From Candidatus Falkowbacteria bacterium RIFCSPLOWO2_12_FULL_45_13 (GTDB lineage Bacteria > Patescibacteriota > Patescibacteriia > Patescibacteriales > GWC2-42-12), in assembly GCA_001778055.1 (NCBI GenBank), contig MFFY01000061.1:515-64514 (forward strand): a stretch of 64,000 bases of DNA, given 5' to 3'. The notes below the pieces were generated by a model. It saw nothing but the letters and a program-made list of their open reading frames with translations. It did not search any database and had not been told where the DNA came from. Below are positions 18,464-64,000 of this stretch, one piece after another. Positions within the stretch are counted from its first letter, which is position 1; each line of letters begins with the position of its first letter. Made by a program: the position numbers and the translations under genes.

Positions 18464-18629
18464 ATAGAATAATTTAATAGTACTTACGCGCTCTCCAATA
18501 TTATCTAAAGTTAATAAAAATTGTTAATTTATGCCAACCAACTGTAATTACCCGCAAATCTACAAATCAGCTACGAATACTACCAATGCTATTCGTGATA
18601 TTCGTAGCTGATTTGTAGATTTGCGGGAG

Positions 18630-24214: not shown

Positions 24215-24285
24215 TAGAAATTTTAGATTTGCGATTTCTGATTTTAGATTTTAAAATTGCTAAATCGTAAATCGAAAATATTTTT

Positions 24286-24359
24286 TGGTGGACTCACCGG
24301 GAATCGGACCCGGACCTCGGCAATGCGAATGCCGCGTAATACCGTTTTACTATGAGCCC
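24286..24359 (-). tRNA. tRNA-Ala (anticodon CGC) with G3:U70 identity pair
   Basis: Reverse complement gives GGGCTCA TA GTAA-AACGGTA-TTAC G CGGCA-TTCGCAT-TGCCG AGGT CCGGG-TCCGATT-CCCGG TGAGTCC A CCA. Acceptor position 3 is a G:T pair. 74 nt. Confidence 0.8.
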
Positions 24360-24401
24360 CTTTTAAATTTACGAATTACGATTTTCGATTTACGATTTAA
24401 A

Positions 24402-29501: not shown

Positions 29502-29588
29502 AATCAGTCATGTTTTTGCAAATTCATAATTGCCTAACAAATCAACGAATTAACTACGAATATCACGAATAATATAATTGAAAAATAA

Positions 29589-30668
29589 TTATTTTAGTAT
29601 TTGTATATTCGTTGTAAAATTCGTTGATTCGTTAGCCTGGTTGATTTGTGGGTAGACATTCTTTAAAAAGCTTCTGATCGGCACAGGCACCGAGCAGCCC
29701 AGGGCGCAAACCGAAGTATCGGCCAGATTGTCCAATAAATTATTAAACAAGACCCAGTCGGTTTTTCCCGCCAGAAAAACCTCGCCCAATCTAAAAGTTC
29801 CTTCGCGGCAGGGCGCGCATTGCCCGCAAGATTCGCTCATAAAAAAATTAAGCCAAGACTTAATGATTTTTTTATAATTATTCTTTGTGATGCTGTAAAT
29901 AGTGATGGAACCCGCGCCCTGAACCGATCTTTTTAACTGTCGGCTATTTAAAACTTCGCCGGCCGCGCCGCCGCCACATTGGACAAAAAAAGGAAATTTA
30001 GGATAATTTTTTGTCGCTTTTAATATTTTCTCAATGCTAAAACTTTCCGGCAAATCATAAACTCCCTCCCGCGGGCAATCGCCGGTCAGGCTGTAAAATC
30101 TTTTATTTTCATATCGATTGGCTTCAACCAGGCTGACATTATAAAAAGTTTCAACGTTATTCACTAAGGTGGGGCAGCCCCACAGGCCGGCGGTGGTGGG
30201 AAACGGCGGTTTTAACCTAGGCTCGACCCTTCGACCTTCAATGGCGTTTAAAATCGCGCTTTCCTCGCCGCCGATATAACCGGCGTTCGGCGGCTTAACG
30301 AAGATTTCAATAACAGAAGATTTCAACAGAACGGTTAATTTTTTTTTCAATTTTTTATTATAACCGTAGTTTAAAAATAAATAACCTTTTACAACTCCCT
30401 TGTCCGCCGAGGCTTTAGCGTAGGCGGATAAAAAATCAACGGCGATTTTCATGCCGTTAATCACCTGATCCGCGTGATGCTCTAAAATATAATCATCTTT
30501 GATCACGCCCGGTTCGCCTTCAGCCGCGTTACAGACCACATAGCATTTTTTTTCGCCTGCTTTATCCGCCAGAGCCTGAGCGACGGCAGACCACTTTTTC
30601 GCCACCGGAAAGCAGGCGCCACCGCGCCCGACCAGACCGGCTAGTTTTATTTTTTCCAGGATATCCAT
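29589..30668 (-). CDS. NuoF-like NADH-binding FMN flavoprotein subunit (hydrogenase HydB/HndC-like, short form)
   Basis: 359 aa. GLVGRGGACFPVAKKW, YVVCNAAEGEPG, GYIGGEESAILNAIEGRRVEPRLKPPFP, PTLVNNVETF, ESCGQCAPCREG. It lacks the N-terminal NuoE-like and C-terminal ferredoxin extensions of full HydB. Confidence 0.8.
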   Translation of the reverse strand: MDILEKIKLAGLVGRGGACFPVAKKWSAVAQALADKAGEKKCYVVCNAAEGEPGVIKDDYILEHHADQVINGMKIAVDFLSAYAKASADKGVVKGYLFLNYGYNKKLKKKLTVLLKSSVIEIFVKPPNAGYIGGEESAILNAIEGRRVEPRLKPPFPTTAGLWGCPTLVNNVETFYNVSLVEANRYENKRFYSLTGDCPREGVYDLPESFSIEKILKATKNYPKFPFFVQCGGGAAGEVLNSRQLKRSVQGAGSITIYSITKNNYKKIIKSWLNFFMSESCGQCAPCREGTFRLGEVFLAGKTDWVLFNNLLDNLADTSVCALGCSVPVPIRSFLKNVYPQINQANESTNFTTNIQILK

Positions 30669-42737: not shown

Positions 42738-44804
<2,067 letters not shown>

Positions 44805-49390: not shown

Positions 49391-52300
49391 CTAATCTAAA
49401 ATCTTGTTTATTGCTTCAACCATATCCCGGCTGTAATTTACCTTAAAATCGGTTTTCACCAGGTTAGTCTTAGCGCCGGAAATTAATTTAAAAAAGACTT
49501 TTTTGTCGCCGCTATTTTTTATTAAAATTTGCTTTAATTTAGCTAATATTAACTCATTGATGTTGCCATTTAAAGTTATGAAGAGCTTGTCATTTTTAAG
49601 AACTAGGTTCTTGGCGGCCGGTAAGGCGCCAGCCCACGCCGGCTGGCTGGCTGACGAAACGGCTTGGAGCGAGGGATAGCCGTAAGACACGGCGCCATTA
49701 GACGCCTTGGGGTAAAATCTTTTTATTCCACCATTGCTTTTATTATTACCGCTGGCCGTAAATTTATTTATGGCCTCGGCCGCGGTTTCGGAGGTTAGCT
49801 CCATGACTTTATTACAAAGCAATTTCAACTCCTGATCTTTGTCCGATAATTTTCCCTGGCAAAGCACGACTTTGCCTTCCTGCCAAATTAAATTGTTTTC
49901 TTTAAGAAGGCTGGGGAAAACTAAAATTTCCAGGCTGCCGGTCATATCTTCAATCTTGACAAACAGCATGGGTTCGGCAGAGCGGGTGATGATCTTCTTT
50001 ATTTTAGTTATCACTCCGCCCAAGCTAACCTGATAATCAGACTGATGCTCGGCTAAAGCGGCTACGGGCAGCACGGCTGAATTCAGTATTTTTTTGCAGC
50101 CGGAAAAGGGATGATCGCTGATATAGAGCCCGAGCAATTCTTTTTCCCAGGCTAATTTTTCCCGCGCCGTGGCCGCCGGCGCCGGTCCTAACTTAATCCG
50201 GCGGTTAAAATTTATGCTGGGAGCGTCCATAAATAAACTGGCCTGGCAATTGGATTTTGATTTGGCGATGTCGCGGTTAAATCCCAAAATATTTTCCATA
50301 TTGCCCAAGAGCTGACCGCGTTCGCCGAAATTATCCAAGCTACCGCTTTTGACCAGGCTCTCCAGCGATTTTTTATTTAAATCTTTATCGCAGACTCTTT
50401 CCAATAAGTCAGTGATATCTTTATACGGGCCATGCTGTTTGCGCTCCTTGATGATCTCCTCGGCAATATGGCCGCCGATATTTTTTATGGCTTTAAGCCC
50501 GAAACGGATTGTTTTGGACTCTTCATTCTGGCCAACCGCCTGATTTCTCTCCGTGCCGCTGGTTACCACGGTAAAGGATTCGTATGATTGATTAATGTCC
50601 GGCGCCATCACTTTTATGCCCATGTGGCGGCATTCCTCAATTTCAATGGCAATGCGGTCGATATTCTCCTGATCGGCGGTCAAAAGCGCGGCCATGAATT
50701 CTGCCGGCCAGCGCGCTTTTAAATAGGCGGTTTGATAACCGATCAAAGCGTAGCAGGCGGCATGGCTCCTATTAAAGCCGTAGCCGGCGAATGGCTCGAT
50801 AAAGGAAAAGATGTTTTCCGCTTGCTGGCTGGAGATGCCGTTTTTAACGCAGCCGTCGATAAACTTTTCTTTTTGTTCAGCCAGCAATTTCACTATTTTT
50901 TTGCCCATGGCTTTTCTTAAAACATCGGCTTCGGCCATGGTAAAGCCGGCCAAATCCCTGGCCATCCGCATCACCTGCTCCTGATAAATGGCCACGCCAT
51001 AGGTTTTTTTTAGGATCGGCTCCAGCTTGGCGTGAAGTAGCCGCGGTTTTTTTAGGGCCTTCTTGCCGTTGATATAATCGGGAATCCATTCCATCGGCCC
51101 GGGGCGATAGAGCGCTACCATGGCGATGATATCTTCAAACTCAGTGGGTTTAAGCTCGCGCAAATACCTTTTCATGCCGCTGGATTCAAATTGAAAGACG
51201 CCGGTGGTTTCTCCGGCCTGGAATAGTTTATAGGTCAAAGCGTCATTTTGCGGAATTTTATCTATATCAATCGCCAGGTCGCGGGTATTTTTAATAATCT
51301 TAATGGCCGACTCGATAATGGTCAGATTTTTTAAACCCAGAAAATCCATTTTTAAAAGACCCAAATCTTCCACCGGGTGCAAAGAATATTGCGAGATCAC
51401 GCTGCGATCAGAAGAGGAGGCGTATTGCAAAGGCAGATATTCGGTTAAAGGATCCTTGGTGATGACTACGCCGCAGGCGTGGGTGGAGGCGTGCCGCGCC
51501 ACGCCCTCCAGCCGCCGGGCGTAATCAATGATCCGCCGGGCCGATTCATCGTTTCTGTAAAGCTCTTTTAATTCGCCGACTTCCTCGACCGCTTGCTTGA
51601 TTTTAGAAAACATCGGGATCATCTTAGCCAGTTTATCGCAAAATTCGTAAGGATAATTAAGCGCCCGGCCGACGTCGCGGATGGCGGCCCGGGCGGCCAT
51701 GGTGCCGAAAGTGATAATTTGCGCCACATGGTCTTTGCCATATTTCTCTTCCACGTAACGGAGCACTTCATCGCGCCTGGCGTCGGCAAAATCCATGTCA
51801 ATATCCGGCATGGAAATCCGGTCGGGATTTAAAAACCTCTCAAACAGCAAATCGTACTTAAGCGGGTCAATATTAGTGATATTCAATAAATACGAAACCA
51901 GCGAACCGGCGGCCGAACCGCGGCCCGGTCCGACCACGATGTTATTTGATTTGGCCCAGTTGACGAAATCCGCCACAATTAAAAAATAAGACGGCCAGCC
52001 CATTTTTTTAATGACGGTCAGTTCGTAATCCATTCTGGCTTTAATTGTCGGGTCAATTTGCTCATAATTTTTGCCGTAACGAATCATTAAGCCCTGATGG
52101 CATAAATTATCCAGATAAGCTTCAATCTCCTGCCCGCCCGGCGTGAGGAAAAACGGCAACTGAATTTTTCCCAGCTCTAATTCCAGATTGCATAAAGCGG
52201 CGATTTTTTCCGTGTTCAAGATGGCTTCGGGCGTCTCCTTAAAAGCTTCGATCATCTCTTTGGTCGGCCGGAAAGAATAATCGCCTCCCAGCATCATCAT

Positions 52301-53005
52301 GCGATCGCGGTCTTCTTTTTTCTTCTTGGTCTGCAAGCATAATAAAACATCCTGCGGCTCGTCATCATCTTTATTCAAATAGTGGATATCGTTAGTCGCC
52401 ACCAGCGGGAGATTAAGTTCCCGGGAGATGGCGATAAGCGCCTGATTAACCGGCCCCTGCTCCGCCAGATTGGGATGGCTTTGCAGTTCCAGGTAAAAAT
52501 TACCCGGACCGAACAGCTGGCTGTATTCCAACACTCTTTTTTTGGCCTTGTCTAACTTCCCCGCCGTAACGAGGCGCGGGATTTCCCCGGCCAAACAAGC
52601 GGTTAAAGCGATCAAGCCTTCGCAGTGCTTGGACAAAACTTCCCAATCAATTCTGGGCTTATAATAAAAGCCTTCCAGGTGGGCGATGGAAGTCAGTTTG
52701 ATTAAATTTTGGTAGCCAACCCTATTTTTCGCCAACAGCACCAGGTGGTAATTCCTTCCGTCGGATTTAACATTTTTATCCAGCCGCGACCCGGGCGCCA
52801 GATAAGTTTCCACGCCGATGATTGGTTTAAGGCCGGCCTGTTTGCATTTCTGATAAAATTCAATTACGCCGTACATGACGCCATGGTCGGTCAAGGCCAG
52901 GCTGGTCGAACCCTCGTCCTTGGCTTTTTTTACCAGCTCGTCAATTTTGGTTAAGCCGTCCAGCAAAGAATAATGGCTATGGACATGGAGATGTGTAAAT
53001 TGCAT
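49391..53005 (-). CDS. dnaE: DNA polymerase III alpha subunit
   Basis: 1204 aa. N-terminal PHP domain FTHLHVHSHYSLLDG, polymerase core (PDIDMDF, GLLKMDFLGLKNL) and OB-fold region. Confidence 0.95.
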   Translation of the reverse strand: MQFTHLHVHSHYSLLDGLTKIDELVKKAKDEGSTSLALTDHGVMYGVIEFYQKCKQAGLKPIIGVETYLAPGSRLDKNVKSDGRNYHLVLLAKNRVGYQNLIKLTSIAHLEGFYYKPRIDWEVLSKHCEGLIALTACLAGEIPRLVTAGKLDKAKKRVLEYSQLFGPGNFYLELQSHPNLAEQGPVNQALIAISRELNLPLVATNDIHYLNKDDDEPQDVLLCLQTKKKKEDRDRMMMLGGDYSFRPTKEMIEAFKETPEAILNTEKIAALCNLELELGKIQLPFFLTPGGQEIEAYLDNLCHQGLMIRYGKNYEQIDPTIKARMDYELTVIKKMGWPSYFLIVADFVNWAKSNNIVVGPGRGSAAGSLVSYLLNITNIDPLKYDLLFERFLNPDRISMPDIDMDFADARRDEVLRYVEEKYGKDHVAQIITFGTMAARAAIRDVGRALNYPYEFCDKLAKMIPMFSKIKQAVEEVGELKELYRNDESARRIIDYARRLEGVARHASTHACGVVITKDPLTEYLPLQYASSSDRSVISQYSLHPVEDLGLLKMDFLGLKNLTIIESAIKIIKNTRDLAIDIDKIPQNDALTYKLFQAGETTGVFQFESSGMKRYLRELKPTEFEDIIAMVALYRPGPMEWIPDYINGKKALKKPRLLHAKLEPILKKTYGVAIYQEQVMRMARDLAGFTMAEADVLRKAMGKKIVKLLAEQKEKFIDGCVKNGISSQQAENIFSFIEPFAGYGFNRSHAACYALIGYQTAYLKARWPAEFMAALLTADQENIDRIAIEIEECRHMGIKVMAPDINQSYESFTVVTSGTERNQAVGQNEESKTIRFGLKAIKNIGGHIAEEIIKERKQHGPYKDITDLLERVCDKDLNKKSLESLVKSGSLDNFGERGQLLGNMENILGFNRDIAKSKSNCQASLFMDAPSINFNRRIKLGPAPAATAREKLAWEKELLGLYISDHPFSGCKKILNSAVLPVAALAEHQSDYQVSLGGVITKIKKIITRSAEPMLFVKIEDMTGSLEILVFPSLLKENNLIWQEGKVVLCQGKLSDKDQELKLLCNKVMELTSETAAEAINKFTASGNNKSNGGIKRFYPKASNGAVSYGYPSLQAVSSASQPAWAGALPAAKNLVLKNDKLFITLNGNINELILAKLKQILIKNSGDKKVFFKLISGAKTNLVKTDFKVNYSRDMVEAINKILD

Positions 53006-53278: not shown

Positions 53279-54157
53279 TCACTTCTTAATTTTATTAGTC
53301 AGCTCGCCCAGCTCTTCGTCCGAGAAAAAATAAATAATGACTTCCCCGCCCTTGCCTTTCCTTTTAATTTCCGCTTTGGTGCCGAAAAACTGGCGGAAAG
53401 CAAATTCCTTGTCTTTATCGGCGTAGTTAATTTTTATTCTGGCCTGTTTGGTCCCGCCCATAACCCTGGTCTCTTTGACAGCGTCACTGACCGTCATTTG
53501 ACCGCGCAATATTTTTTTAAATAAAGCCATCTGCTTGACCTCGTTTTCCAGACCGGCGATTGTTTTGGCATGGCCCTCGTTAATCCGGCCTTCAATCAGG
53601 GCGGTTTGAATTTCTTCGGGCAAATTCAAAAGTCTGATGGCGTTGGCTATAACCGGCCGCGATTTGGAGAGCCTCAAAGCCAGTTCGTCCTGGCTTAAAT
53701 TAAATTCATCTATCAATTTGCGGTAAGCCACCGCGGCCTCAATCGGGTTTAAGTCTTCCCGCTGCAGGTTTTCCACCAGCGCCACTTCCAGTTTTTGCTG
53801 TTCGCTGGCCTGGCGGATAATCACCGGTATCAGCGGCAGGCCTAAAACTTTGGCCGCTCTTAAGCGGCGTTCGCCCGCGATTAATTCGTACTGGCCGTTT
53901 TTTTGCGTTACTATCAATGGCTGAATGACGCCGTATTGCTTAATTGACGTCGCCAGCTCGCTTTGCTGGAGCTCGCTAAAATTCCGGCGGGGCTGCAGGG
54001 GATTAAACCGTATTTGTTCCGGACTGATCTGATGTATCCGGTTCTTATCCGTTTCGCTAGCCACCTCAACCACGGCTTCGCCGCTTGAAGCCGTGGTAAC
54101 TTTTTTAACTTTTTGCGGAATCAGGGAACTAAGTCCCCTGCCTAAGCTATTGGACAT
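53279..54157 (-). CDS. parB: Chromosome partitioning protein ParB (Spo0J)
   Basis: 292 aa. ParB box [27 protein letters not shown], and an HTH region. Confidence 0.9.
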
Positions 54158-54234: not shown

Positions 54235-55008
54235 TTAAAATTTAGACCTTTCCAAATCCATCACTTCCCTGGCCAGCTTTTCGTAAGCCCGGCCGCCTTT
54301 TGATTTAGGGTCGTAATATAAAATCGAACGGCCATAGCTCGGCGCCTCGGCCAGCTTGACGCTTCTGGGGATAATGCTCCTAAAAACTTTGTTGGGAAAA
54401 TATTGGTAGAGCTCGTTCATGACCGATCCGGATAGGCGGTTCCTTTTATCAAACATGGTTATGACCGCGCCCATAATGCCCAGCCCCGCCTTTAAATTGC
54501 TTTGCACCAGGCTGATGGTGTCCAATAACTGGCCTAAGCCTTCCAGGGCGAAATATTCGCTCTGGATGGGAATTAAGACTTCGTCAGCCGCCACCAGGCT
54601 GTTGACGGTTAACAGCCCCAGCGAGGGCGGCCCGTCAATAATGATATAATCATATTCGTCTTTAATCTGGTCCAAAATTTGCGCCAACCTAAATTCCCGG
54701 TTTTCCAAATTAACCAGTTCAATGCCGGCGCCGGCCAAAGCAATCGTGGCCGGAGCGATCTTATAGCCGTCCTGCAAAGTATATTTGATGACTTCAAAGA
54801 TCGGCTTATGCCCGATCAGGGCTTCGTAAATGCCGTGTTCCAAATTTTTATGGTCAATCCCTAAGCCGGACGTGGCGTTGGCCTGCGGATCAATGTCAAC
54901 CAACAGCACCTGTTTGCCCAAATAGGCCAGATAAGCGCCCAAATTCAAGGCGGTAGTGGTTTTGCCCACCCCGCCCTTTTGATTGACAATGGAGATTATT
55001 TTACCCAT
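54235..55008 (-). CDS. parA: Chromosome partitioning ATPase ParA (Soj)
   Basis: 257 aa. Deviant Walker A KGGVGKTTTALNLGAYLA, then VLLVDIDPQANAT. Confidence 0.9.
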   Translation of the reverse strand: MGKIISIVNQKGGVGKTTTALNLGAYLAYLGKQVLLVDIDPQANATSGLGIDHKNLEHGIYEALIGHKPIFEVIKYTLQDGYKIAPATIALAGAGIELVNLENREFRLAQILDQIKDEYDYIIIDGPPSLGLLTVNSLVAADEVLIPIQSEYFALEGLGQLLDTISLVQSNLKAGLGIMGAVITMFDKRNRLSGSVMNELYQYFPNKVFRSIIPRSVKLAEAPSYGRSILYYDPKSKGGRAYEKLAREVMDLERSKF

Positions 55009-55210
55009 TTAGAATAAGAAACAATAATCAAGAAACAATAACCGAAACCAAGCAAAACATCCAAATTTCAAATTATTATTGTTTGTTGCTTGTATCTTGG
55101 TTATTGGTTATTTTTCACATTTATATTATACCCCATTTCCGCCCTCTTTGACAAATTTATAAAAAAAATTTATTATTATATCAGAATAAAACTAGCTTGA
55201 GCTGGTTTTT

Positions 55211-55397
55211 ATATAGAGATGGTTACAAAACTATTTCGTAGCGAAATTTAGATATTTTTCGGCCAGGCGAGGAAAACCAGCGAAATGATTTGAACCGTAA
55301 TAGTATTACGGTGAAAATCATTTCGCGCCAGTTTGACGAAGCCTGGCCGAAAAATAGCAAATTGCAGCAAAAATAGTTTTGTAACCATCTCATATAA
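55211..55397. repeat. Long (about 185 bp) near-perfect hairpin palindrome immediately upstream of tRNA-Leu
   Basis: Nested arms gagatggttacaaaactattt / aaatagttttgtaaccatctc (21 bp, perfect), atttttcggccaggc / gcctggccgaaaaat, cagcgaaatgattt / aaatcatttcgcgc, and the central palindrome ccgtaatagtattacgg. Confidence 0.8.
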
Positions 55398-55425
55398 AGG
55401 TAAGCTCAAAAAATCGAAAATTTTG

Positions 55426-55512
55426 GGGGATGTGTTGGAACTGGTAGACGAGAAGGTCTCAAAAACCTTTGGAAGCAATTCCGTGTGGGTTCGACTCCCA
55501 CCATCCCCACCA
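55426..55512 (+). tRNA. tRNA-Leu (anticodon CAA), class II with long variable arm
   Basis: Acceptor GGGGATG/CATCCCC, D arm TTG-GAACTGGTAGA-CGA, anticodon stem AAGGT/ACCTT with loop CTCAAAA, variable arm TGGAAGCAATTCCG, T arm GTGGG-TTCGACT-CCCAC, then A-CCA. 87 nt. Confidence 0.85.
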
Positions 55513-55636
55513 GCGATTTTTATATCACACTGTGTGTGTATGCTCTGAACGAGCAGGGCGGGCTGGCTTTCTTGGTCTGGTTTCGTTCAGGAGTTTCGGA
55601 TAAAATGAGTTCGAGCCAAACTGTAAAAACACACCA

Positions 55637-55680
55637 AGGAGGACCAAGCCCGGAAGAAGTTTGGTCTTTTTGGACCTTAA
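55637..55680 (+). promoter_or_regulatory. Conserved 45-nt leader element upstream of purD (AAGGAGGACCAAGCCCGGAAGAAGTTTGGTCTTTTTGGACCTTAA); terminator/antiterminator-like alternative hairpins
   Basis: Near-identical copy at 57201-57247 upstream of purB. GGACCAA/TTGGTCT stem followed by a T5 run, and a competing GGTC/GACC pairing. Confidence 0.5.
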
Positions 55681-55736
55681 AAAGATTTTAAAAAACGGTA
55701 AACTTAACCTAACAACAGACAAGAAAGGAACCAGCC

Positions 55737-57080
55737 ATGAACGAAAACGTACTATTGGTCGGCAACAGCGCCCGAGGGCACGCTATCGCGGAAGCGATAA
55801 TCAGGTCAAAGCCAACTCCGGTCTTGTTCGCCTACATGAAAGCCAACAACCCTGGAATAGCGGCCCTGGCGGATAAAGTCCAAATTGGCGGCTACGACGA
55901 TCTGAAAAAAATCACCGGTTTCGCCCGGAGTCAGGGCGCCAGTCTGGCCGTAATTGATTCGGAAGAGCCATTAAAAAACGGCGTGGCTGATGCCCTGGAA
56001 ATAGCCCGGATCCCGGTGGTCGGGCCCGGACAGCTAGAGACCCAACTGGAAACCTCAAAAGCTTTCACCAGGGAACTGATGAAGCAATATAACGTAGCCG
56101 GCAGTCCAAAATCAAAAACCTTTAGGACTATGGACGGCATCGAAGAATACCTGAAGGAAAATATGCCATGCGTTTTAAAGCCGGACGGACTGACCGGCGG
56201 CAAAGGCGTTATGGTCCAGGGCGAACACTTCAATACCGTGGATGAAGCATTGGGAATCTGCCTTGACATTCTGACGCATCGCCCGACGGTGGTGATTGAA
56301 GAAAAACTTGAAGGCGAGGAATTTTCTCTCCAATGTTTCTGCTCCGGCCTGATTGTTGTGCCCATGCCGCCGGTTCAAGATCACAAACGCCGACTGATTG
56401 GCGATCAGGGATTGAACACCGGTAGTATGGGTTCGTATTCCTGCCCTGACCATCTGTTGCCGTTCCTAACGCAGGATGATTTGAACCAGGCCGTGGACAT
56501 TCTGGAGCAGATCGTCCTGGTATTGTACTTAGAAACCGGCGGTTATTACAGGGGCATAATCTACGGCGGTTTCATGCTGACTGCCCCGGGGCTTAAACTA
56601 TTGGAGATCAACGCCCGCTTCGGCGATCCGGAAGCCATCAACGTCTTGTCGCTCCTGGAAACCGATTTCCTAGACATCTGCCGATCTATCACCTGCCCCA
56701 GAAACTATGGCAAGCTCAACCAACTGGACATTAGGTTCAAACCCCTGGCCACGGTGGTAAAATACGTGGTGCCGGTCAATTACGGCCTGCCCAAAAACCA
56801 GTATGTCCAAACAGCCTCTGATGTTATCCAACTCGACAACCCGGGAGAGGCCCGCCTTTATTATTCATCCGTTGCGAGCAAGCGGACCGTCATTCGCCTG
56901 ACCTCTTCCCGCGCCGTGGCGGTCCTGGGAACCGGTTCCGACCTGGCTGAAGCGGAAAGGATCGCCGAACAAGGGACTCGCGCCGTTATCGGAGCGGTGG
57001 ATCACCGTTCGGACATCGGCACGGCCGCGCTTATCGCCAAACGAGTGCGGCACATGGAGAAGTTAAAAAAAACAAAATAA
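55737..57080 (+). CDS. purD: Phosphoribosylamine--glycine ligase (GAR synthetase, ATP-grasp)
   Basis: 447 aa. N-terminal VLLVGNSARGHAIAEA, ATP-grasp core PCVLKPDGLTGGKGVMV, EEKLEGEEFSLQCF, and ARFGDPE. Confidence 0.8.
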   Translation: MNENVLLVGNSARGHAIAEAIIRSKPTPVLFAYMKANNPGIAALADKVQIGGYDDLKKITGFARSQGASLAVIDSEEPLKNGVADALEIARIPVVGPGQLETQLETSKAFTRELMKQYNVAGSPKSKTFRTMDGIEEYLKENMPCVLKPDGLTGGKGVMVQGEHFNTVDEALGICLDILTHRPTVVIEEKLEGEEFSLQCFCSGLIVVPMPPVQDHKRRLIGDQGLNTGSMGSYSCPDHLLPFLTQDDLNQAVDILEQIVLVLYLETGGYYRGIIYGGFMLTAPGLKLLEINARFGDPEAINVLSLLETDFLDICRSITCPRNYGKLNQLDIRFKPLATVVKYVVPVNYGLPKNQYVQTASDVIQLDNPGEARLYYSSVASKRTVIRLTSSRAVAVLGTGSDLAEAERIAEQGTRAVIGAVDHRSDIGTAALIAKRVRHMEKLKKTK

Positions 57081-57104
57081 TATCCCGTTTAAGGGATATA
57101 ATAG

Positions 57105-57157
57105 GGTTTCGATTTAGAACGTATTGCAATGCGTCCTACTGCCGAAACCCTTTTTTT
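57105..57157 (+). terminator. Rho-independent terminator after purD (gggtttcg ... cgaaaccc plus T7)
   Basis: 8-bp GC-rich stem followed by ttttttt. A second small hairpin, atcccgtttaagggat, lies just upstream. Confidence 0.7.
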
Positions 57158-57200
57158 GCTTGCCTTTTCCCAACCTTTGTACTAACATTTAATCAAACAT

Positions 57201-57247
57201 AAGGAGGACCAAGCCCGGAGTAGGTTTGGTCTTTTTGGACCTTAACA
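57201..57247 (+). promoter_or_regulatory. Second copy of the conserved pur leader element (AAGGAGGACCAAGCCCGGAGTAGGTTTGGTCTTTTTGGACCTTAA), upstream of purB
   Basis: Differs from copy 1 at only 3-4 loop positions. Located about 100-150 nt upstream of the purB start. Confidence 0.5.
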
Positions 57248-57350
57248 ATCCTACCAAAGGTTTTCGGGAGAAAAAACAAACCCCATACCAGGCTTGGTGT
57301 GGAGACAAACCAGACAACAACTATAACAAAAAAGAGAAAGCGAGAAAGTC

Positions 57351-58826
57351 ATGCATAAATTACTGGAAACAGTCATTAGCCAAAATCTGCCGACGGTGTC
57401 AAAACTGCCTGGCAGAAACCTGCAGATGCCGGGCGACCCCCGCTATCAGCCCGAGGCGCTTAAACCGTTCTTGGGCTACGACATGTGGGCTTCGTTCCTG
57501 ATAATCGTGGAATGGTTCTGGCTCATGACACTAGCGGAAATTGGCTTCATGCCGCGTAAAGAAACGGCCGGGTTAACCCGTGAGCGGCTGTTGAATCTGC
57601 TCGAGAACATTTCTACCACTGTTCAAGACGCCCGAGAATACGGCCGGGATGGACGAGCAGGAACTAACCACGACATCCTGGCCCTGTTGGAACTGATGAA
57701 ACGGTATTTGCCTAAGGCGCTGCATAAATACTTGCACCTGGGCGCGACCTCATACAACATCATCAATACGGCCTACGCCTTGATTTTAGCGCAAGTATTT
57801 CAACGGGTCTTTAAGCCGAAACTGCTGGTCGTGGATCAGGTTTGGCGGGACAAAATCAGCCAGTACGCCGAGGTTGTACAAGCAGGCCGGACTCATCTGC
57901 AAACTGCTCTGCCCGTAACCGTTGGCTTCTGGCTGGCCTGCCTGCATTATCAGTTTAGAAACTGCGTCCAAAACGCTTACTTTCTGTCCATGATTGTTCC
58001 GGGAAGTTTCAACGGCGCCGTGGGCACTTCAGCCGCGCTCCTGGCCATGCTCGGAAGAGACAAAGCCATAATGGCGCAAGAGACGCTGATGAAATACCTA
58101 GACTTGGAGAGAGCGGAGTATACTACACAAATTTCCCCGCCCCAGGATGCGGCCCGCTTCTACTTTGAGCTGTTGCTGCTGTCGGGGGTGCTGGGTAATT
58201 TGGGCGAGGATGTCCGCATCCTGCAGTCATCGGAGTTCGGCGAAATTGTCAGCGCCACCGAGGTTAATTCTTCTTCATCCACTATGGCTCATAAAAAGGC
58301 CAATCCGATCAAGGCGGAAAATAACTGCGGCATGCACGTCAATGTCATCGCCGAGGTCATGAAAGTAGCGCTGACGCTGACGAGCGACCTGCAAAGAGAT
58401 TTAAGGTGGTCCTGCGTTATGCGCAGTTTCAGCTCGGCCATGGTCTACGCTTACCAGCAGATCAGCACCACCGAGAGGCTGATTAAGTCGCTGGCCGTTG
58501 ACCCGCGTCGGGTCAAAACCAACTTCAGGAGAGAAGCCAAGCTGGTCGTGGCTGAACTCTTGCACTTGTGCTTGCAACGGCAGGGATATGCCGGTACGCA
58601 CGAACTGGTCAACAAAACCATCGTGCCGGCGGCTGCTGCTAAAGGTATCAGCCTGCCCTTAGCCATGCGGTATCACCTGCAATCTCATCCGGACAAAAAA
58701 CTCGAACAAGCCTGGCGGTTAACACCGGCAAGCTCGCTTGAGTTGCTCAAGCGCCCGGAAAAATACATCGGCCGGGCAATTGAATTGGCCAAAGCCGAAG
58801 CCAAAAACAAACTGGAAATGGAATAG
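57351..58826 (+). CDS. purB: Adenylosuccinate lyase (fumarate-lyase superfamily); the true start may be the internal MPGDPRYQ
   Basis: 491 aa. Fumarate-lyase signature SSSTMAHKKANP, N-terminal RYQPEAL pattern, GATSYNI motif. Confidence 0.8.
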   Translation: MHKLLETVISQNLPTVSKLPGRNLQMPGDPRYQPEALKPFLGYDMWASFLIIVEWFWLMTLAEIGFMPRKETAGLTRERLLNLLENISTTVQDAREYGRDGRAGTNHDILALLELMKRYLPKALHKYLHLGATSYNIINTAYALILAQVFQRVFKPKLLVVDQVWRDKISQYAEVVQAGRTHLQTALPVTVGFWLACLHYQFRNCVQNAYFLSMIVPGSFNGAVGTSAALLAMLGRDKAIMAQETLMKYLDLERAEYTTQISPPQDAARFYFELLLLSGVLGNLGEDVRILQSSEFGEIVSATEVNSSSSTMAHKKANPIKAENNCGMHVNVIAEVMKVALTLTSDLQRDLRWSCVMRSFSSAMVYAYQQISTTERLIKSLAVDPRRVKTNFRREAKLVVAELLHLCLQRQGYAGTHELVNKTIVPAAAAKGISLPLAMRYHLQSHPDKKLEQAWRLTPASSLELLKRPEKYIGRAIELAKAEAKNKLEME

Positions 58827-59118
58827 ATAACCTAAAACCGAACAACCCCGAACCGCCCCGCCGGGAATTAAAACCCCGGCGGGGTAAACCACAAACCAGG
58901 AAAGAAATAGGAGAAAACACAAAATGAACCAAAAAATGCTCCGCGCCCGAACTGCCAGCAGAGATCGTTCAAAAAACCAGCGAAAAATACCTGGAAGCGC
59001 TTAGACGCTTAAGCAAGGTACTGGCGAAATAGGCGGGGCTTACGCCAAGGCTAGATTTTAGAGAGTAAACAACACGCGGCCTCTCCATGATGGAGAAACT
59101 GCGGCGAGGAGGATTAAA

Positions 59119-59346
59119 ATGAGAGCGATATCAGGATTATGCAAATGCCAAGCCTGCCAGTCACAGTTTCCGCTAATCTGGGTTGCTCAAAGCAAGAACG
59201 GAGCTTGCCAGATTGGCGCCTTTAAGTTCTGCTGTCAGAAATGCGCGGAGCATTTTTTGGCAAACAATCTCTTGCCCAAACGGATGGGTAGAGATATTCA
59301 ATTTACCCTGGAGTTAAAAAAACTCCAGAACGGACCGCGACCGTAA
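59119..59346 (+). CDS. Hypothetical Cys-rich small protein (possible zinc-ribbon)
   Basis: 75 aa. Strong ribosome-binding site GAGGAGGA 7 nt upstream of the ATG. Cysteines arranged CKCQAC ... C ... CCQKC. Followed by a terminator. Confidence 0.4.
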   Translation: MRAISGLCKCQACQSQFPLIWVAQSKNGACQIGAFKFCCQKCAEHFLANNLLPKRMGRDIQFTLELKKLQNGPRP

Positions 59347-59379
59347 CTTAAGCTGAACTTTTAAAGGAGGACAACGCGA

Positions 59380-59415
59380 AAGGACACTTGTCTAGGCAAG
59401 TGTCCTTCTTTTTAT
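59380..59415 (+). terminator. Rho-independent terminator (aaggacacttg-tctaggc-caagtgtcctt plus T-run), bidirectional between convergent genes
   Basis: 11-bp perfect stem followed by cttttta. Confidence 0.7.
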
Positions 59416-61742
59416 TTACCTAAGGCCTTTATTTTGTTATTCACTTCTTCATTCCCCGGATTCAGTTCCAAAACTTTCTCTAAATATCTTAGCGCCTCCT
59501 TAATCTTTCCTTGAGCCTCATACGCTATGCCTAAGCTGTACAGGCTGTTAGAGTGCCGGGGTGAAACGGTTAGGGCCAGTTTGAACCGCTCGATAGCTTT
59601 GTCAATTTCACCGCGGTTATAATAATATCTGCCCAGTTCATAATAGACATCCGCCGTCGGGACCTGGCGCGCCAGCTCATTTAATAAACCTAGAGCCTGA
59701 TTGTCTTTTTTATTGTTTAGGTAGGTTTTGGCCAGCCAAAATTTAGCCTCATAATAATCGCTCTTCAGCGCCAAAGCGGTTTTAAAATATTCTTCCGCGT
59801 TAGCCGTCTCATTATGGTTAAAATACGCTTTGCCCAGCTCGGTGGCCAGGACCGGATTGGTCGGTTCAAGCTCAAAAGCTCGCGCGAAAGACCTGACCGC
59901 CCAAGGCTCGCTGCCGCTGGTTAACGGCCGGCTGTCGCGGTAGATCATGCCCATGGTTTCCTGGGCCAAAACCGAATGGGGCGCTAAAATTTGAGCTTGT
60001 TTGGCCATTTCTACGGCCTCCGTGATATTGGCTTTGATATTTAGATTATTTCTTTGCTCAATCGGCTTTAAAGCTTCGGCTCGGGCCTGATTTAAATAAA
60101 TTTCGGCTAAACTGATCCGATAATTATAACGGTAAGGGTTTAATTTAACCGCCGTCAGCAAATTGATTTCATCCTTGGGCTTGAGCGCGGCCATGATATC
60201 CGCGGCTAAAAATTTAACCTCAAAAGTCAAAAGAATCATCCAGCCAACGGTTAGCATAAGCAGGCCGGAAAAAAACGACCAATAAGATATCTTGCTGTTG
60301 CTTAAATCAATGATTTTTTCCTTAAACAAAGCCGGGTGGCGATTTTGCCAAAAAGCCATAACCAGGCTTAGGCCCAGCCAAAAAATAAAATTTAAAACCG
60401 TATTGGCGAGAAAAAAAAACTGGAAAAAAAATACTAAAATAAATATAGTAAAGAGAGCGGCGATTAAATTATAATCATCGCCGGCCAAAAAGTAGTTTTG
60501 GCTGGTAAAATGCTTTCTGATTAAAACGACAGTCAGATAGATTAGCAGACTAACCACCAAAAGATAGCTTAAAACCGTCAACAGCCCGCCGGTCGCCAGC
60601 ATTTCCAGAAGATGAGAACCGCTTTTATCAAACCTGATCTGCCAAAAAGGGCCATTATTTAATTCGGCCGGGCGATACCGTGAAAAGTCCGCCGCGTAAG
60701 TTCCCGGACCGCTACCCAGGGCCGGATTTTTAAAAACCGCCTCTTGGCTGACGTCCAAAGCCTGGCTGTAATCCAGCATGGCTTCTTGGGGAAATTCTCG
60801 GCCTAAAATTTTTTTAGCTAAATTTATGCCGTTAGGCTGCTCCGCCCGGCTGGAAACTGATTTCACGGGATGCGCGTTGGGCAGAGCCAGCATTAAAACG
60901 GCCAGCAGCATGAGCGCCAGCGGAAGCGATAAATAGTAATTCAATGTTTTTTTAAAATTATACCTTTGAGCCGGCTTACCAGCCGCGGCTTCGGCCTGGG
61001 CGGGCCGGCGGAATAAAATAATCAAACCAGCGCCGAGAAACAGCGAAATCCAGCTTAAAGAAAAATTAACCAGCGTTAAAACCATCAGGCAGATTATCAG
61101 GCCGGCGCGAAAAATAAAGCGGTCAAATTTATTCAAATAACCGCTAAGCAAAAAATCGGCCAGCGCCACTGCCACGACCGCCAGCAGAACCGCCAACGCC
61201 AAGAGCGAACTGCCGGCTAAATTAAGCGGCGGCCATGAAAAAGCCGAGCCTGCCTCGCCTAGGCTCGGACCGCCCAAGGCGGTGAATAAAAAAACGGCCG
61301 CTACCATGATTGAGGAATAAAGAAACAGTTTCCAAAGATCAATGATTTTTCTGGTACTGTCGGCCAGCTCGGCATTAACCATTAAAAAATAAAACAGCGC
61401 CAAACTAAATAGGCCGAACCAGGCGTCGGAAAATCTGCCGAAATAACCGAAAAATGACGAGAAGCGATCCAGGCTGAACCAGGATGAAACGGCGGTTAGC
61501 GATAAAAAAATCAATATCGGTAAATTTAAAGGGTTATTTTTAATCTTAATCTGTTTCCGCGCCGCCATTTTATAAAGCCCGATCATGGCGGCCGCGGGCA
61601 TCAAGAGCCATAGCAAAAACTGCTTAGCCAGCTCAAAGCCTTCGCTGGTCCAGGGTAAAAAAAATAAAGGCAGGAGGAAAATCACGCCCTTGATCAATAT
61701 TAAAATTGTTTTATCAAATTTGCCGGCAAAATTATCTGACAT
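59412..61742 (-). CDS. Polytopic membrane protein with C-terminal TPR repeats (O-antigen-ligase/Wzy_C-like membrane domain plus TPR)
   Basis: 776 aa. At least 10 predicted TM helices in the N-terminal 470 aa. The C-terminal ~250 aa contains several TPR-like 34-aa repeats (ALRYLEKVLELNPGN, AIERFKLALTVSP, AEEYFKTALALKSDY). Confidence 0.5.
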   Translation of the reverse strand: MSDNFAGKFDKTILILIKGVIFLLPLFFLPWTSEGFELAKQFLLWLLMPAAAMIGLYKMAARKQIKIKNNPLNLPILIFLSLTAVSSWFSLDRFSSFFGYFGRFSDAWFGLFSLALFYFLMVNAELADSTRKIIDLWKLFLYSSIMVAAVFLFTALGGPSLGEAGSAFSWPPLNLAGSSLLALAVLLAVVAVALADFLLSGYLNKFDRFIFRAGLIICLMVLTLVNFSLSWISLFLGAGLIILFRRPAQAEAAAGKPAQRYNFKKTLNYYLSLPLALMLLAVLMLALPNAHPVKSVSSRAEQPNGINLAKKILGREFPQEAMLDYSQALDVSQEAVFKNPALGSGPGTYAADFSRYRPAELNNGPFWQIRFDKSGSHLLEMLATGGLLTVLSYLLVVSLLIYLTVVLIRKHFTSQNYFLAGDDYNLIAALFTIFILVFFFQFFFLANTVLNFIFWLGLSLVMAFWQNRHPALFKEKIIDLSNSKISYWSFFSGLLMLTVGWMILLTFEVKFLAADIMAALKPKDEINLLTAVKLNPYRYNYRISLAEIYLNQARAEALKPIEQRNNLNIKANITEAVEMAKQAQILAPHSVLAQETMGMIYRDSRPLTSGSEPWAVRSFARAFELEPTNPVLATELGKAYFNHNETANAEEYFKTALALKSDYYEAKFWLAKTYLNNKKDNQALGLLNELARQVPTADVYYELGRYYYNRGEIDKAIERFKLALTVSPRHSNSLYSLGIAYEAQGKIKEALRYLEKVLELNPGNEEVNNKIKALGK

Positions 61743-61846
61743 TGATTTATGTCAAAACTCAAATGTTAAATGTTAAAACTAAATCTCAAATATAAAAACT
61801 ATCAACTTAATATTAGTTTTGACATTTAAGTTATAGTTTTGAGTTT

Positions 61847-62944
61847 TTAATTTTGAAACTTGAGATGATTAAAATTATCTTCCTGCCCTTCATTCACCAT
61901 TGCTTTTTTCCCGTTTTCGCGGCTGTTAAAAATATCCTTAATAAAAATAGCCGCCACCGTGGTGACGGGTATGGAAAGAATGGCGCCGACGACCCCGGCC
62001 AGCTTAAAGCCGGCCAGCATGGCTAAAATGCTGATAATCGGATTTAAGCCCACGGCCTTTTCCATGATTTTCGGGTAGAGAAAATTACCCTCAATAAACT
62101 GTATTATATAAAATAAAATAATCACAAAAATGGCTAAGAGCGGCGTTTGCGTGAAAGCGATAAACACCGCCGGCAATGAGCCTAAAATTGCCCCCATGTA
62201 GGGTATAAAAGAAAACAGGCCGACTAAAATCGCCAATAGCAAGGCGTAATTAACGTCTAAAATTAACAGTCCGATGTAGGTCATGATGGTTAAGGCCAAA
62301 CCCAATATCAGCTGGCCGCGGAGCCAATAGCCCATTTTTATTTGCGCGCGGCGGACTAATTGCATGATATAGGGCTGATGCCTGGCCGGCGCGATTGACC
62401 AGACTAGTTTTTTCAGGCAGTTTTCCTCCACCGCCAGATAAAAAGTCAAAACCAAAATCAAAATAAAAGAAAAAATTCCGCCGAAAATATTGGTGACCGT
62501 GAAAAAAATTCCTGAAGCCGTGCTGGAGAGATAGCTGGAAAGCAGATCCAATGACCCTTGAAATTTATCATAGACGCCGTATTTTGACGAATAATCTCTT
62601 AAATCGCTGAATTTTGAATAAATAGATTCAAAGTAGCGCGGGAAATTGTTTGACAAGTCGTTAATTTCTTTTATAATTATCGGGATAATCAGATACAAAA
62701 CCAGCCCCAGAACGGCCAAGATAACCAGATATAAAAATAATACGCTGACCGACCGCGGAATCTTCTTTTTCTTCAGCCAGTCCACCCAAGGGTCCAGGCC
62801 GCTGGCGATCACCAGGGCCACAAAAAAAAGTATCAAGATGTCGCTGACTAAAGACAGAAAATAAAACAAAATAAAAATCGCGATAACTTTAAAAATCGCG
62901 GCGCTAGAAATATTAATACTGATGGGCCGTTGATTAAGTTCCAT
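61847..62944 (-). CDS. AI-2E family transporter (UPF0118/PerM-like)
   Basis: 365 aa, 8-TM topology. Characteristic N-terminal IFKVIAIFILFYFL...FFVALVIASGLDPWVDWL and C-terminal Gly-rich TM segments. Confidence 0.8.
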   Translation of the reverse strand: MELNQRPISINISSAAIFKVIAIFILFYFLSLVSDILILFFVALVIASGLDPWVDWLKKKKIPRSVSVLFLYLVILAVLGLVLYLIIPIIIKEINDLSNNFPRYFESIYSKFSDLRDYSSKYGVYDKFQGSLDLLSSYLSSTASGIFFTVTNIFGGIFSFILILVLTFYLAVEENCLKKLVWSIAPARHQPYIMQLVRRAQIKMGYWLRGQLILGLALTIMTYIGLLILDVNYALLLAILVGLFSFIPYMGAILGSLPAVFIAFTQTPLLAIFVIILFYIIQFIEGNFLYPKIMEKAVGLNPIISILAMLAGFKLAGVVGAILSIPVTTVAAIFIKDIFNSRENGKKAMVNEGQEDNFNHLKFQN

Positions 62945-63040
62945 ATGTTTTTATTTTACCATATTTTACCCCCTTGATAAAGGGGCAAACCCTGGCCTTA
63001 ATCAAGCGCCAGGGCTAGAGCCGTCAGAGCCAACCAATCA

Positions 63041-63673
63041 TTAGGGTTTTTCTTCCATCAACTCCCCGATTACCACCAGCCGATTTTTTTTTGAAAAAAT
63101 CGGGTCGCAGGTATAGAGGGTTAAAGTCGGCTGGGCAGTCGGCTCTAAAATTGAAACTTCGCTGGCCGGCACGATTTTTGTCTCTTTGATCCGGTAATTA
63201 TAAATCTTATTTTTCCAGCTAAGCGAGACCAGGTCTCCGGTTATTAATTTATCAAGTAAATAAAAAGTTAAATTGTTGGGCGGCAGGTATTTAAAGCGGT
63301 GTCCGGTGATAACCGTATTGCCGCCATGATCCGGCGTGGAGCTTTCCGGTATTCTCCAGGCGCCTCGGCTTAAGCCAATTTCAGAATTTTTCGCCTCAAC
63401 AATCGGCGCGTTAACGCCGATTTTCGCGATCAGTAAACGGTTTAAGGAAATATTTTCTTCGGCCGCGGGCAAAGGGTTGGTAGGCGGTTCAGTTTGGCTG
63501 GCGGTTTTTTTTGGATCTGGCGCTTCGGCCGCGCCAGCCTGATTTAGCTGAAAATATTTATACTTCAGGGCCGGCCAAACAGGCATTATAATTAAATAAG
63601 CAGCCAGGCCAATAGCTAAAAGCTCCAGTATAAACACCAGAGCTTTTAAAATTTTATTATTATCTTTTAACAT
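63041..63673 (-). CDS. Sortase family transpeptidase (class E-like)
   Basis: 210 aa. N-terminal TM anchor, catalytic His (ITGHRF), and TLYTCDP (the TLxTC active-site Cys motif). Confidence 0.8.
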   Translation of the reverse strand: MLKDNNKILKALVFILELLAIGLAAYLIIMPVWPALKYKYFQLNQAGAAEAPDPKKTASQTEPPTNPLPAAEENISLNRLLIAKIGVNAPIVEAKNSEIGLSRGAWRIPESSTPDHGGNTVITGHRFKYLPPNNLTFYLLDKLITGDLVSLSWKNKIYNYRIKETKIVPASEVSILEPTAQPTLTLYTCDPIFSKKNRLVVIGELMEEKP

Positions 63674-63684
63674 CTTAAGCAGAT

Positions 63685-64000
63685 TTAGCGGTTTTTAAAA
63701 TAAATGTCCGCCCGCTGGTAAATAAATAAATCCTGGTTAAAAATTAAAGTTTTTTTCAGCCAGCAGCGATGTCGGCCATCGACTTTAAGGTATTTTATTT
63801 TTATAAAAGCGATTAAGCTTAATAAAATTAATAAAATTAAGATCAGGGCCATAAATTCTGAAGGTTTAAAGCCAGTATCAGCTAAAACTTTTCCGTTTGG
63901 CTTAGCGGCAACTTTTTGACCCAAAATCAGGCCGGTCGCGGGCTTGGTTATCTTATCGCCCAATACTTGCTCAACCGGCGTAATAGCAACCGCGCTGCCA
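63685..64000 (-). CDS. C-terminal fragment of a surface protein with LAXTG-type sorting signal (LADTG, then hydrophobic helix, then basic tail); the 5' end lies beyond the window
   Basis: ...KVLADTGFKPSEFMALILILLILLSLIAFIKIKYLK... immediately upstream of the sortase gene. The reading frame remains open to the window edge. Confidence 0.5.
   Translation of the reverse strand, partial: GSAVAITPVEQVLGDKITKPATGLILGQKVAAKPNGKVLADTGFKPSEFMALILILLILLSLIAFIKIKYLKVDGRHRCWLKKTLIFNQDLFIYQRADIYFKNR

Follow-up and report, generated by a model that had tools for sequence, protein, structure and literature searches.

The parA-tRNA-Leu locus and its palindrome

In this work, we analysed a stretch of 64,000 nucleotides (the window) from a contig of Candidatus Falkowbacteria bacterium RIFCSPLOWO2_12_FULL_45_13. 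The genes dnaE (49391-53005), parB (53279-54157) and parA (54235-55008) are located on its − strand, and a 417-bp spacer separates parA from a gene for tRNA-Leu(CAA) on the + strand (55426..55512, ARAGORN), whose 5' leader received the insertion described below. The tRNA gene is followed by purD (55737-57080) and purB (57351-58826), both on the + strand. The spacer contains a sigma-70-type promoter of tRNA-Leu, TTGACA-17-TATTAT (55148..55176, +), with 11 of 12 consensus positions, and a divergent promoter-like site for parA, TTGTCA-18-TATAAT (55125..55154, −), which was untouched by the insertion. Directly before the insertion point, the host sequence forms a leader hairpin followed by a T-run, CTAGC-TTGA-GCTGG-TTTTT (55192..55210, +). 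This hairpin lies just past the predicted transcription start of tRNA-Leu and resembles a weak terminator or attenuator; it is kept with loop and stem changes in three sister lineages (L211, L215 and L222) and is absent in a fourth (L219).

The complete element, delimited by its inverted repeats, its fold and the family profile, is 176 bp long (55216..55391, +). Its terminal inverted repeats, GAGATGGTTACAAAACTATTT on the left (55216..55236, +) and AAATAGTTTTGTAACCATCTC on the right (55371..55391, +), are complementary at 21 of 21 positions. They enclose middle arms (55248-55268 and 55341-55361, 90% complementary) and inner arms (55280-55302 and 55304-55326, 91% complementary). The trinucleotide ATA, read from the sequence, flanks the element on both sides (55213..55215 and 55392..55394) as a 3-bp target-site duplication, so that the junctions read ATA/GAGATGG...CCATCTC/ATA. 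The 196 nt from 55205 to 55400 fold on the + strand with −97.9 kcal/mol, compared with −35.6 ± 4.0 kcal/mol for shuffled sequences (z = −15.5; 0 of 200 shuffles as good), and the complementary strand of the palindrome region reaches −93.1 kcal/mol (z = −16.8). The 176-nt element by itself forms 70 base pairs, with −91.9 kcal/mol under RNA parameters and −60.7 kcal/mol under DNA parameters. The family profile matches positions 1-176 of the window copy with 175.6 bits on the + strand and 71 bits on the − strand. The element is an imperfect palindrome with polarity, and its + orientation is the better-folding strand of the family.

An earlier note on this DNA had reported a 185-bp near-perfect palindrome 28 bp upstream of the tRNA gene. 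The palindrome itself is real, with arms at the positions given there and a fold far beyond that of shuffled sequences on both strands. Its size has to be corrected, as the element proper spans the 176 bp from 55216 to 55391, and the extra pairing within 55207-55399 belongs to the AT-rich target and the duplication, outside the element. The distance changes as well, since the element ends 34 nt before tRNA-Leu(CAA). The same note had called the open reading frames across the region spurious on both strands, and we agree: three of them cross the element (55223-55393, −; 55248-55478, −; 55333-55548, +), two overlap the tRNA and none has a Pfam match. The element is apparently non-coding. The sole overlapping Rfam match, MIR6217, reached 36.3 bits, where the gathering score is 110, and corresponds to a generic long hairpin.

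Possible promoters within the element were also considered. An outward-facing −35-like TTGTAA, read from the sequence, is present inside the right terminal repeat (55379-55384), and in the window copy it is followed at 16 nt by a weak TAAGCT; the promoter scan made no call here. Together, the two hexamers could serve as an alternative tRNA promoter. Inside the element, a conserved TTGACG in the right half has no −10 partner that is conserved across the subfamilies.

The arm is absent elsewhere in the 64-kb window, and the family profile finds one copy there, the palindrome itself. The window contains other strong inverted repeats. A tRNA-Ala gene (24286-24359, −) is bracketed by perfect 19-nt inverted repeats (24261-24279 and 24381-24399), so that a long stem would enclose the tRNA. 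A perfect 18-nt inverted repeat (58929-58946 and 59243-59260, 296 nt apart) lies between purB and a TPR gene, a perfect 19-nt inverted repeat with 72 nt between its halves is found at 44472-44490 and 44563-44581, and inverted arms of 37 nt (92%) occupy 18551-18627; these three may represent further repeat families. Short repeats of the ACGAAT/ATTCGT type are abundant in intergenic DNA (18551-18627 and 29544-29633, and L092:450-546 in another locus). Furthermore, nearly all genes of the window from about 1 to 55000 lie on the − strand, up to parA, and those from 55000 to 64000 on the + strand. The GC skew is negative to the left of dnaE-parB-parA and about zero to the right, and the strand switch and the skew beside these genes may mark a region near the replication origin. 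The palindrome, which lies beside dnaE-parB-parA at the gene-strand switch, was considered as a replication-origin structure itself; this was rejected, as no DnaA-box cluster is present and the element is repeated elsewhere.

A dispersed family and its target sites

The earlier note had asked whether the arm occurs elsewhere. For a 19-mer from it, GATGGTTACAAAACTATTT, at least 120 exact matches lie in metagenome contigs, the same genome included, and most of the listed matches form +/− pairs 152-155 bp apart, as in the window. By BLAST, full-length copies with 70-100% identity to the window copy were found. After the removal of duplicates, the matches listed comprise 66 distinct copies, including the window copy, with unrelated flanks. 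The mode of the copy length is 175-177 bp; longer forms of 196-229 bp and deletion remnants also occur, and the minimal form of 49 bp consists of the two arms and 7 nt. The window copy can be aligned end to end with 47 other full-length copies. The terminal arms are nearly invariant among 28 diverse copies, a conservation that is partly circular, since the copies were retrieved with the 19-nt arm probe.

The target-site duplications that the earlier note had proposed to look for are present. A perfect 3-bp AT-rich duplication flanks 49 of the 66 copies, compared with 9 on average and at most 20 for random pairings of the flanks. The commonest are AAT (12), ATT (12), ATA (8) and TAT (7). In both sibling Falkowbacteria MAGs, a copy interrupts a small GIY-YIG nuclease gene downstream of pheT (L229:3530-3852, equal to L099:5976-6298; inserted copy at 3677-3852 of L229). 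The interrupted reading frame reaches positions 1-41 of the GIY-YIG profile only. When the copy and one AAT were removed in silico from L229, a 98-aa frame was obtained that matches positions 1-76 of 78 with E = 5e-12. As read from these sequences, the restoration is a second, independent proof of duplication on insertion.

All copies are intergenic except the one in the GIY-YIG gene, and they are often located 0-20 nt from the ends of reading frames. Their orientation relative to the neighbours is unbiased (14 vs. 12 in tandem contexts, with 7 divergent and 2 convergent cases). Of the 65 other copies, only 2 have a tRNA within 500 bp, and about 2.5 would be expected by chance (27 tRNAs in 839 kb of loci). 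The adjacency to tRNA-Leu is probably coincidental. The suggestion that the tRNA gene had been the integration target is not supported, as this frequency is about that of chance and the element stands 5' of the gene and shares nothing with the tRNA.

Other copies were found in what is probably the same genome. The scaffold Ga0156310_105 of IMG (L198, 18,078 bp) carries a reading frame identical to OGF32090.1 with the locus tag A3H09_03155, and the window's ParB has the tag A3H09_02895 and its ParA (OGF29894.1) and PurD (OGF29895.1) belong to the same accession series. From the shared tag and series we infer that the bin Ga0156310 represents the window's genome. Copies or remnants are present on at least seven other scaffolds of it, namely 101, 105 (two), 106, 123, 132 (two), 136 and 152, and four of the copies are 100%, 97.8%, 96.8% and 94.4% identical to the window copy. 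The first of these (L198:4712-4887) lies at a different locus, and such identity points to recent transposition.

Exact look-ups of its proteins assign the window to Candidatus Falkowbacteria, a lineage of the candidate phyla radiation in Rifle groundwater, with the locus tags A3H09 and A3H66. A subfamily starting with ...TATTTTTAAGCG has the same terminal repeats and is about 78% identical to the window copy; by exact look-ups, its host is Candidatus Taylorbacteria / Parcubacteria GW2011_GWF2_50_9. Other copies belong to unclassified Patescibacteria, and the samples with copies include the Rifle and Hainich aquifers and sediments. The copy upstream of hisS in Taylorbacteria and the copy downstream of pheT in Falkowbacteria are fixed in all strains retrieved. 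Another subfamily, starting with ...TATTTCTGCCGTAATGCCAGATATTCGGCTGCGAC, was observed at the ends of many short contigs of the samples Ga0114945 and Ga0137796 (L105, L109, L112, L113, L117, L120, L128, L133, L138, L164, L170 and others), which suggests that some other host carries very many copies and that its assemblies are fragmented as a result. A phage or plasmid vehicle was rejected: IMG/VR gave two matches, both of them chance matches in coding sequence, and INPHARED phages and PLSDB plasmids do not contain the element.

The same tRNA-Leu leader exists without the element. Four sister Falkowbacteria-like lineages (L211, L215, L219 and L222), whose ParA is at least 90% identical, have retained the promoter and tRNA-Leu(CAA) and lack the element, and the family profile found nothing in L211-L215 or L219-L223. 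These empty-site lineages are about 15-18% diverged in DNA from the window and do not represent an otherwise identical strain. In L211, the parA and promoter DNA is 82-85% identical to the window; the homology covers 55123-55215 at 85%, ends at the last base before the element, and the tRNA begins 11 nt further on. The tRNA promoter, which stands 17-50 nt from the tRNA in the four lineages, predates the insertion, since it is conserved in all of them without the element. The −10 region of the parA-side site is conserved in the sister lineages as well. The insertion lies 39 bp past the conserved −10 box and 34 nt before the 5' end of the mature tRNA, and it is fixed in every sampled strain. In more distant relatives, the element is absent from the tRNA-Leu leader (L011 and L015-L017), and the divergent arrangement of parA and tRNA-Leu is conserved with a spacer of 71-139 bp, compared with 417 bp in the window. 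What the earlier note had named as evidence for a conserved processing element, namely a sequence without other copies that relatives share upstream of tRNA-Leu, was not what we found: copies exist, and the leaders of the relatives do not contain the element.

Some other features of this locus were observed. The tRNA-Leu(CAA) of the window is about 78% identical to that of the four sister lineages, with differences in the acceptor and anticodon stems, and its CCA is encoded. A divergent tRNA-Leu beside a well-conserved promoter could reflect gene replacement or unusually fast divergence. Up to and including the last base of tRNA-Leu (55512/55513), a strain variant (L007:1-268, ENA ERZ27254836) does not differ from the window; it then continues into unrelated DNA, which codes for the C-terminal end of a small hypothetical protein that is restricted to candidate-phyla-radiation bacteria and often encoded on short contigs. 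According to this variant, the 3' flank of tRNA-Leu is strain-variable, as at an integration site, a matter separate from the palindrome. In a distant relative (L012:2200-3000), the parA/tRNA-Leu spacer is 801 bp long and is filled with units similar to CCCCCTTTTAGGGGGAG, a short palindromic repeat of another kind, along with a second stretch that resembles a tRNA.

Origin of the element and conservation of its fold

We consider it very likely that the palindrome is a copy of a non-autonomous cut-and-paste MITE that landed by chance in the tRNA-Leu leader and is tolerated there. A MITE was among the origins proposed in the earlier note, and the many copies of the arm, the 3-bp duplications and the relatives without the element upstream of tRNA-Leu all support it. 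Neither the repeat sequence nor MITEs of candidate-phyla-radiation bacteria are mentioned in the literature searched; the family is previously undescribed, and the kind of element is known.

In the proposed mechanism, a transposase supplied in trans would recognise the terminal repeats and cut an AT-rich site with a 3-bp stagger, which would give rise to the 3-bp duplication. The duplication pattern suggests an enzyme of the DDE type. Enzyme family and mechanism are read solely from the length of the duplication, because no autonomous partner was found in about 840 kb of loci. No transposase ORF lies alongside the solo arms, which are contig ends, deletion remnants of 33-53 nt or chance matches, and pairs of arms 0.3-4 kb apart enclose no transposase and represent two separate MITEs or chance matches. 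Moreover, no IS-sized repeat was detected among these loci, and a tblastn search of all loci with a single distant query, the IS5 transposase InsH of E. coli, gave nothing better than E = 0.7. In the window lineage, the element entered the 5' leader of tRNA-Leu(CAA) at an ATA. The tRNA would now be made with a leader of about 240 nt that holds the 70-bp hairpin, and RNase P cleavage would remove this leader. The hairpin should not terminate transcription, since it is not followed by a U-run (CCATCTCATATAAAGG). The insertion is probably tolerated rather than functional, as it is fixed in every strain that was sampled.

The stems of the family co-vary. For 28 diverse copies, RNAalifold predicted 57 pairs, 25 of them with compensatory changes; 96.8% of the cells are paired, compared with 40-49% when the partners were slid, and the observed covariation was reached by 0 of 500 shuffles. 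In 41 of 42 distinct copies, the + strand folds more stably than the complementary one, the mean difference being 12.9 kcal/mol (Wilcoxon p = 2e-8), although the copies are phylogenetically related, so that the strand and covariation statistics overstate their independence. In the robust helices, G·U cells outnumber A·C cells by 53 to 18. The best-conserved interior positions of the family are unpaired purines. They form an internal loop with the left half 5'-C GA G GA-3' (55268..55273, +; columns 57-62 of alignment A3) and the right half 5'-GA C GAA G-3' (55335..55341, +; columns 132-138), which are invariant or nearly so in the 28 copies and present in all subfamilies. Of the 28 copies, 27-28 retain the flanking pairs C57-G138 and G60-C134. 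The two halves are predicted to form tandem sheared G·A / A·G pairs with one G-C pair between them. A K-turn was rejected by inspection, as the geometry of a 2x3 plus a 2x2 loop does not fit the canonical K-turn with its 3-nt bulge.

The departures from symmetry are common to all subfamilies, so the compensatory changes are later than the asymmetries. As judged from the alignment, this argues for selection on the single-stranded fold of one strand, as opposed to repeated births by fold-back. It is more likely that this selection serves the element's own propagation rather than the host; the lack of an orientation bias suggests propagation and not expression of host genes. Co-varying stems, invariant G·A loops and a bias for one strand exceed the needs of a purely selfish DNA transposon, and cut-and-paste transposition leaves them unexplained.

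These features are the basis of the strongest alternative to the MITE, namely that the family is a mobile structured RNA or single-stranded DNA module whose fold itself is selected, and that it is functional in the pre-tRNA-Leu leader. Its fold would be a rod with protein-binding G·A loops, for example a platform for a transposase or host protein, or a signal for RNA stability or processing. In addition to the covariation, the loops, the strand bias and the excess of G·U cells, it is in favour of this alternative that the + strand of the window copy is the one transcribed from the tRNA promoter. However, the orientation relative to the neighbours is unbiased, one copy interrupts a gene, the sister lineages manage without the element at the tRNA-Leu locus, the relatedness of the copies inflates the strand statistics, and no Rfam family matches. 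On this balance we regard it as unlikely. We also regard as unlikely the related proposal that the family is a horizontally spreading, strand-specific module of candidate-phyla-radiation bacteria, whose co-varying rod and G·A loops would be recognised, in the form of RNA or single-stranded DNA, by a protein of its own, such as an unrecognised transposase or an RNA-binding factor of the host.

The other explanations have far less in their favour than this one. A conserved processing or regulatory hairpin of the tRNA-Leu unit (a guide for RNase III or RNase P, or an attenuator) would fit the site between the conserved promoter and the tRNA, and a different AT-rich imperfect inverted repeat is found in the leader of one distant relative (L011). 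It is nevertheless very improbable, given that the same leader is without the element in four sister lineages and more distant relatives, that dozens of unrelated loci carry the element with target duplications, and that so few of the other copies are near a tRNA. The regulatory or processing structure raised in the earlier note is thereby set aside. An equally slight probability applies to an integrative element, phage or ICE, that was aimed at the tRNA gene and left the palindrome as its scar or attachment site; that note had also listed such a scar. The variant with unrelated DNA directly after the tRNA 3' end would agree with it. Against it, the palindrome lies on the 5' side of the tRNA and shares no tRNA sequence, no direct repeat of the tRNA is present in 54900-55700, the terminal repeats are inverted and not direct, the duplication is 3 bp long, the element's neighbours are parA and purD, and viral contigs, phage genomes and plasmids are without the element. 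A misassembly, for instance a hairpin chimera made by a de Bruijn assembler, has a negligible probability: five of ten independent contigs of the locus end inside the palindrome, but 6 contigs, which come from different samples and assemblers, cross it between the same two distinct flanks and differ by three SNPs only, all in internal loops. The two halves are not identical, and many loci in many projects carry the same element. Assemblies broken within a repeated palindrome are expected assembler behaviour.

The reading as a MITE removes a false lead to a tRNA-specific structure from the annotation of this region and accounts for the spurious reading frames across it. The many breaks at such sites in metagenome assemblies of these organisms are accounted for as well. 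The genomes of candidate-phyla-radiation bacteria are tiny and streamlined, and mobile DNA is usually said to be scarce in them. In these uncultured organisms, a MITE family present at about 10 copies per genome of roughly 1 Mb is useful for tracing recent gene flow and genome dynamics; its value as a marker is given by the identical copies at different loci and by the occurrence of the family in both Falkowbacteria and Taylorbacteria of the same aquifer. If the strand-specific conservation and the G·A loops reflect a real ligand of the single strand, the family would be a handle on a new transposase or RNA-binding protein. If the structured RNA or single-stranded DNA reading is true, it would mean a transposition chemistry in which a single-strand hairpin is the substrate and a 3-bp duplication results, or else a domesticated function as RNA that a transposon carries along.

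Comparison with known elements

The GAG... terminus of the element presumably fits the IS1031 group of ISfinder, with its 3-bp repeat and ends in GAG. A 3-bp AT-rich duplication is found both in this family and in the MITEs derived from IS5 / PIF-Harbinger (Tourist-like MITEs). The IS5/PIF-Harbinger (PHIS) elements mostly give 3-bp duplications, with AT-rich targets ANT or TWA, and bacterial IS5 shares the ANT target (PMC4482050). In our family, 25 of the 49 duplications fit ANT (AAT 12, ATT 12, ACT 1) and TTA occurs twice. However, the ATA and TAT duplications (15 of 49) are outside ANT, and no transposase was found in the roughly 840 kb of loci. Descent from the IS5/PIF-Harbinger group may be taken as a lead only.

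Among hairpin repeats, REP sequences and REPINs are short palindromic intergenic elements mobilised by RAYT transposases, which are IS200/IS605-like. The present family has short, palindromic, intergenic hairpins in common with them, and its strand-specific fold would fit a single-strand transposition chemistry. To our knowledge, REPINs and the relatives of IS200/IS605 have neither terminal inverted repeats in the DDE sense nor a target duplication. In contrast to REP/REPIN and IS200/IS605, the 3-bp duplication of the family is clean, variable from copy to copy and identical on both sides of each copy.

The ERIC/IRU sequences of enterobacteria are imperfect palindromes of about 127-180 bp, which are intergenic, fold as RNA and have orientation-dependent effects on mRNA. 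Our family is likewise an imperfect palindrome that is intergenic and RNA-folding and whose two orientations are not equivalent. It differs from ERIC/IRU in having no orientation bias, and in its ends, duplication and hosts.

The Correia elements of Neisseria (CREE/NEMIS) are 100-160 bp long, end in inverted repeats of about 25 bp and duplicate TA at the target. They are non-coding and mostly intergenic, and they are often co-transcribed with the neighbouring genes as long RNA hairpins. No cognate transposase is known from their host genomes, and none was found for our family in the loci searched. Both families are small, non-coding and mostly intergenic, with terminal inverted repeats and a short AT duplication. 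They have no sequence similarity, and the duplication in our family is 3 bp (AAT/ATT/ATA/TAT) and not TA, in hosts of the candidate phyla radiation. Moreover, unlike in the Correia elements, it is the whole element, and not the ends alone, that forms a co-varying hairpin with invariant G·A loops.
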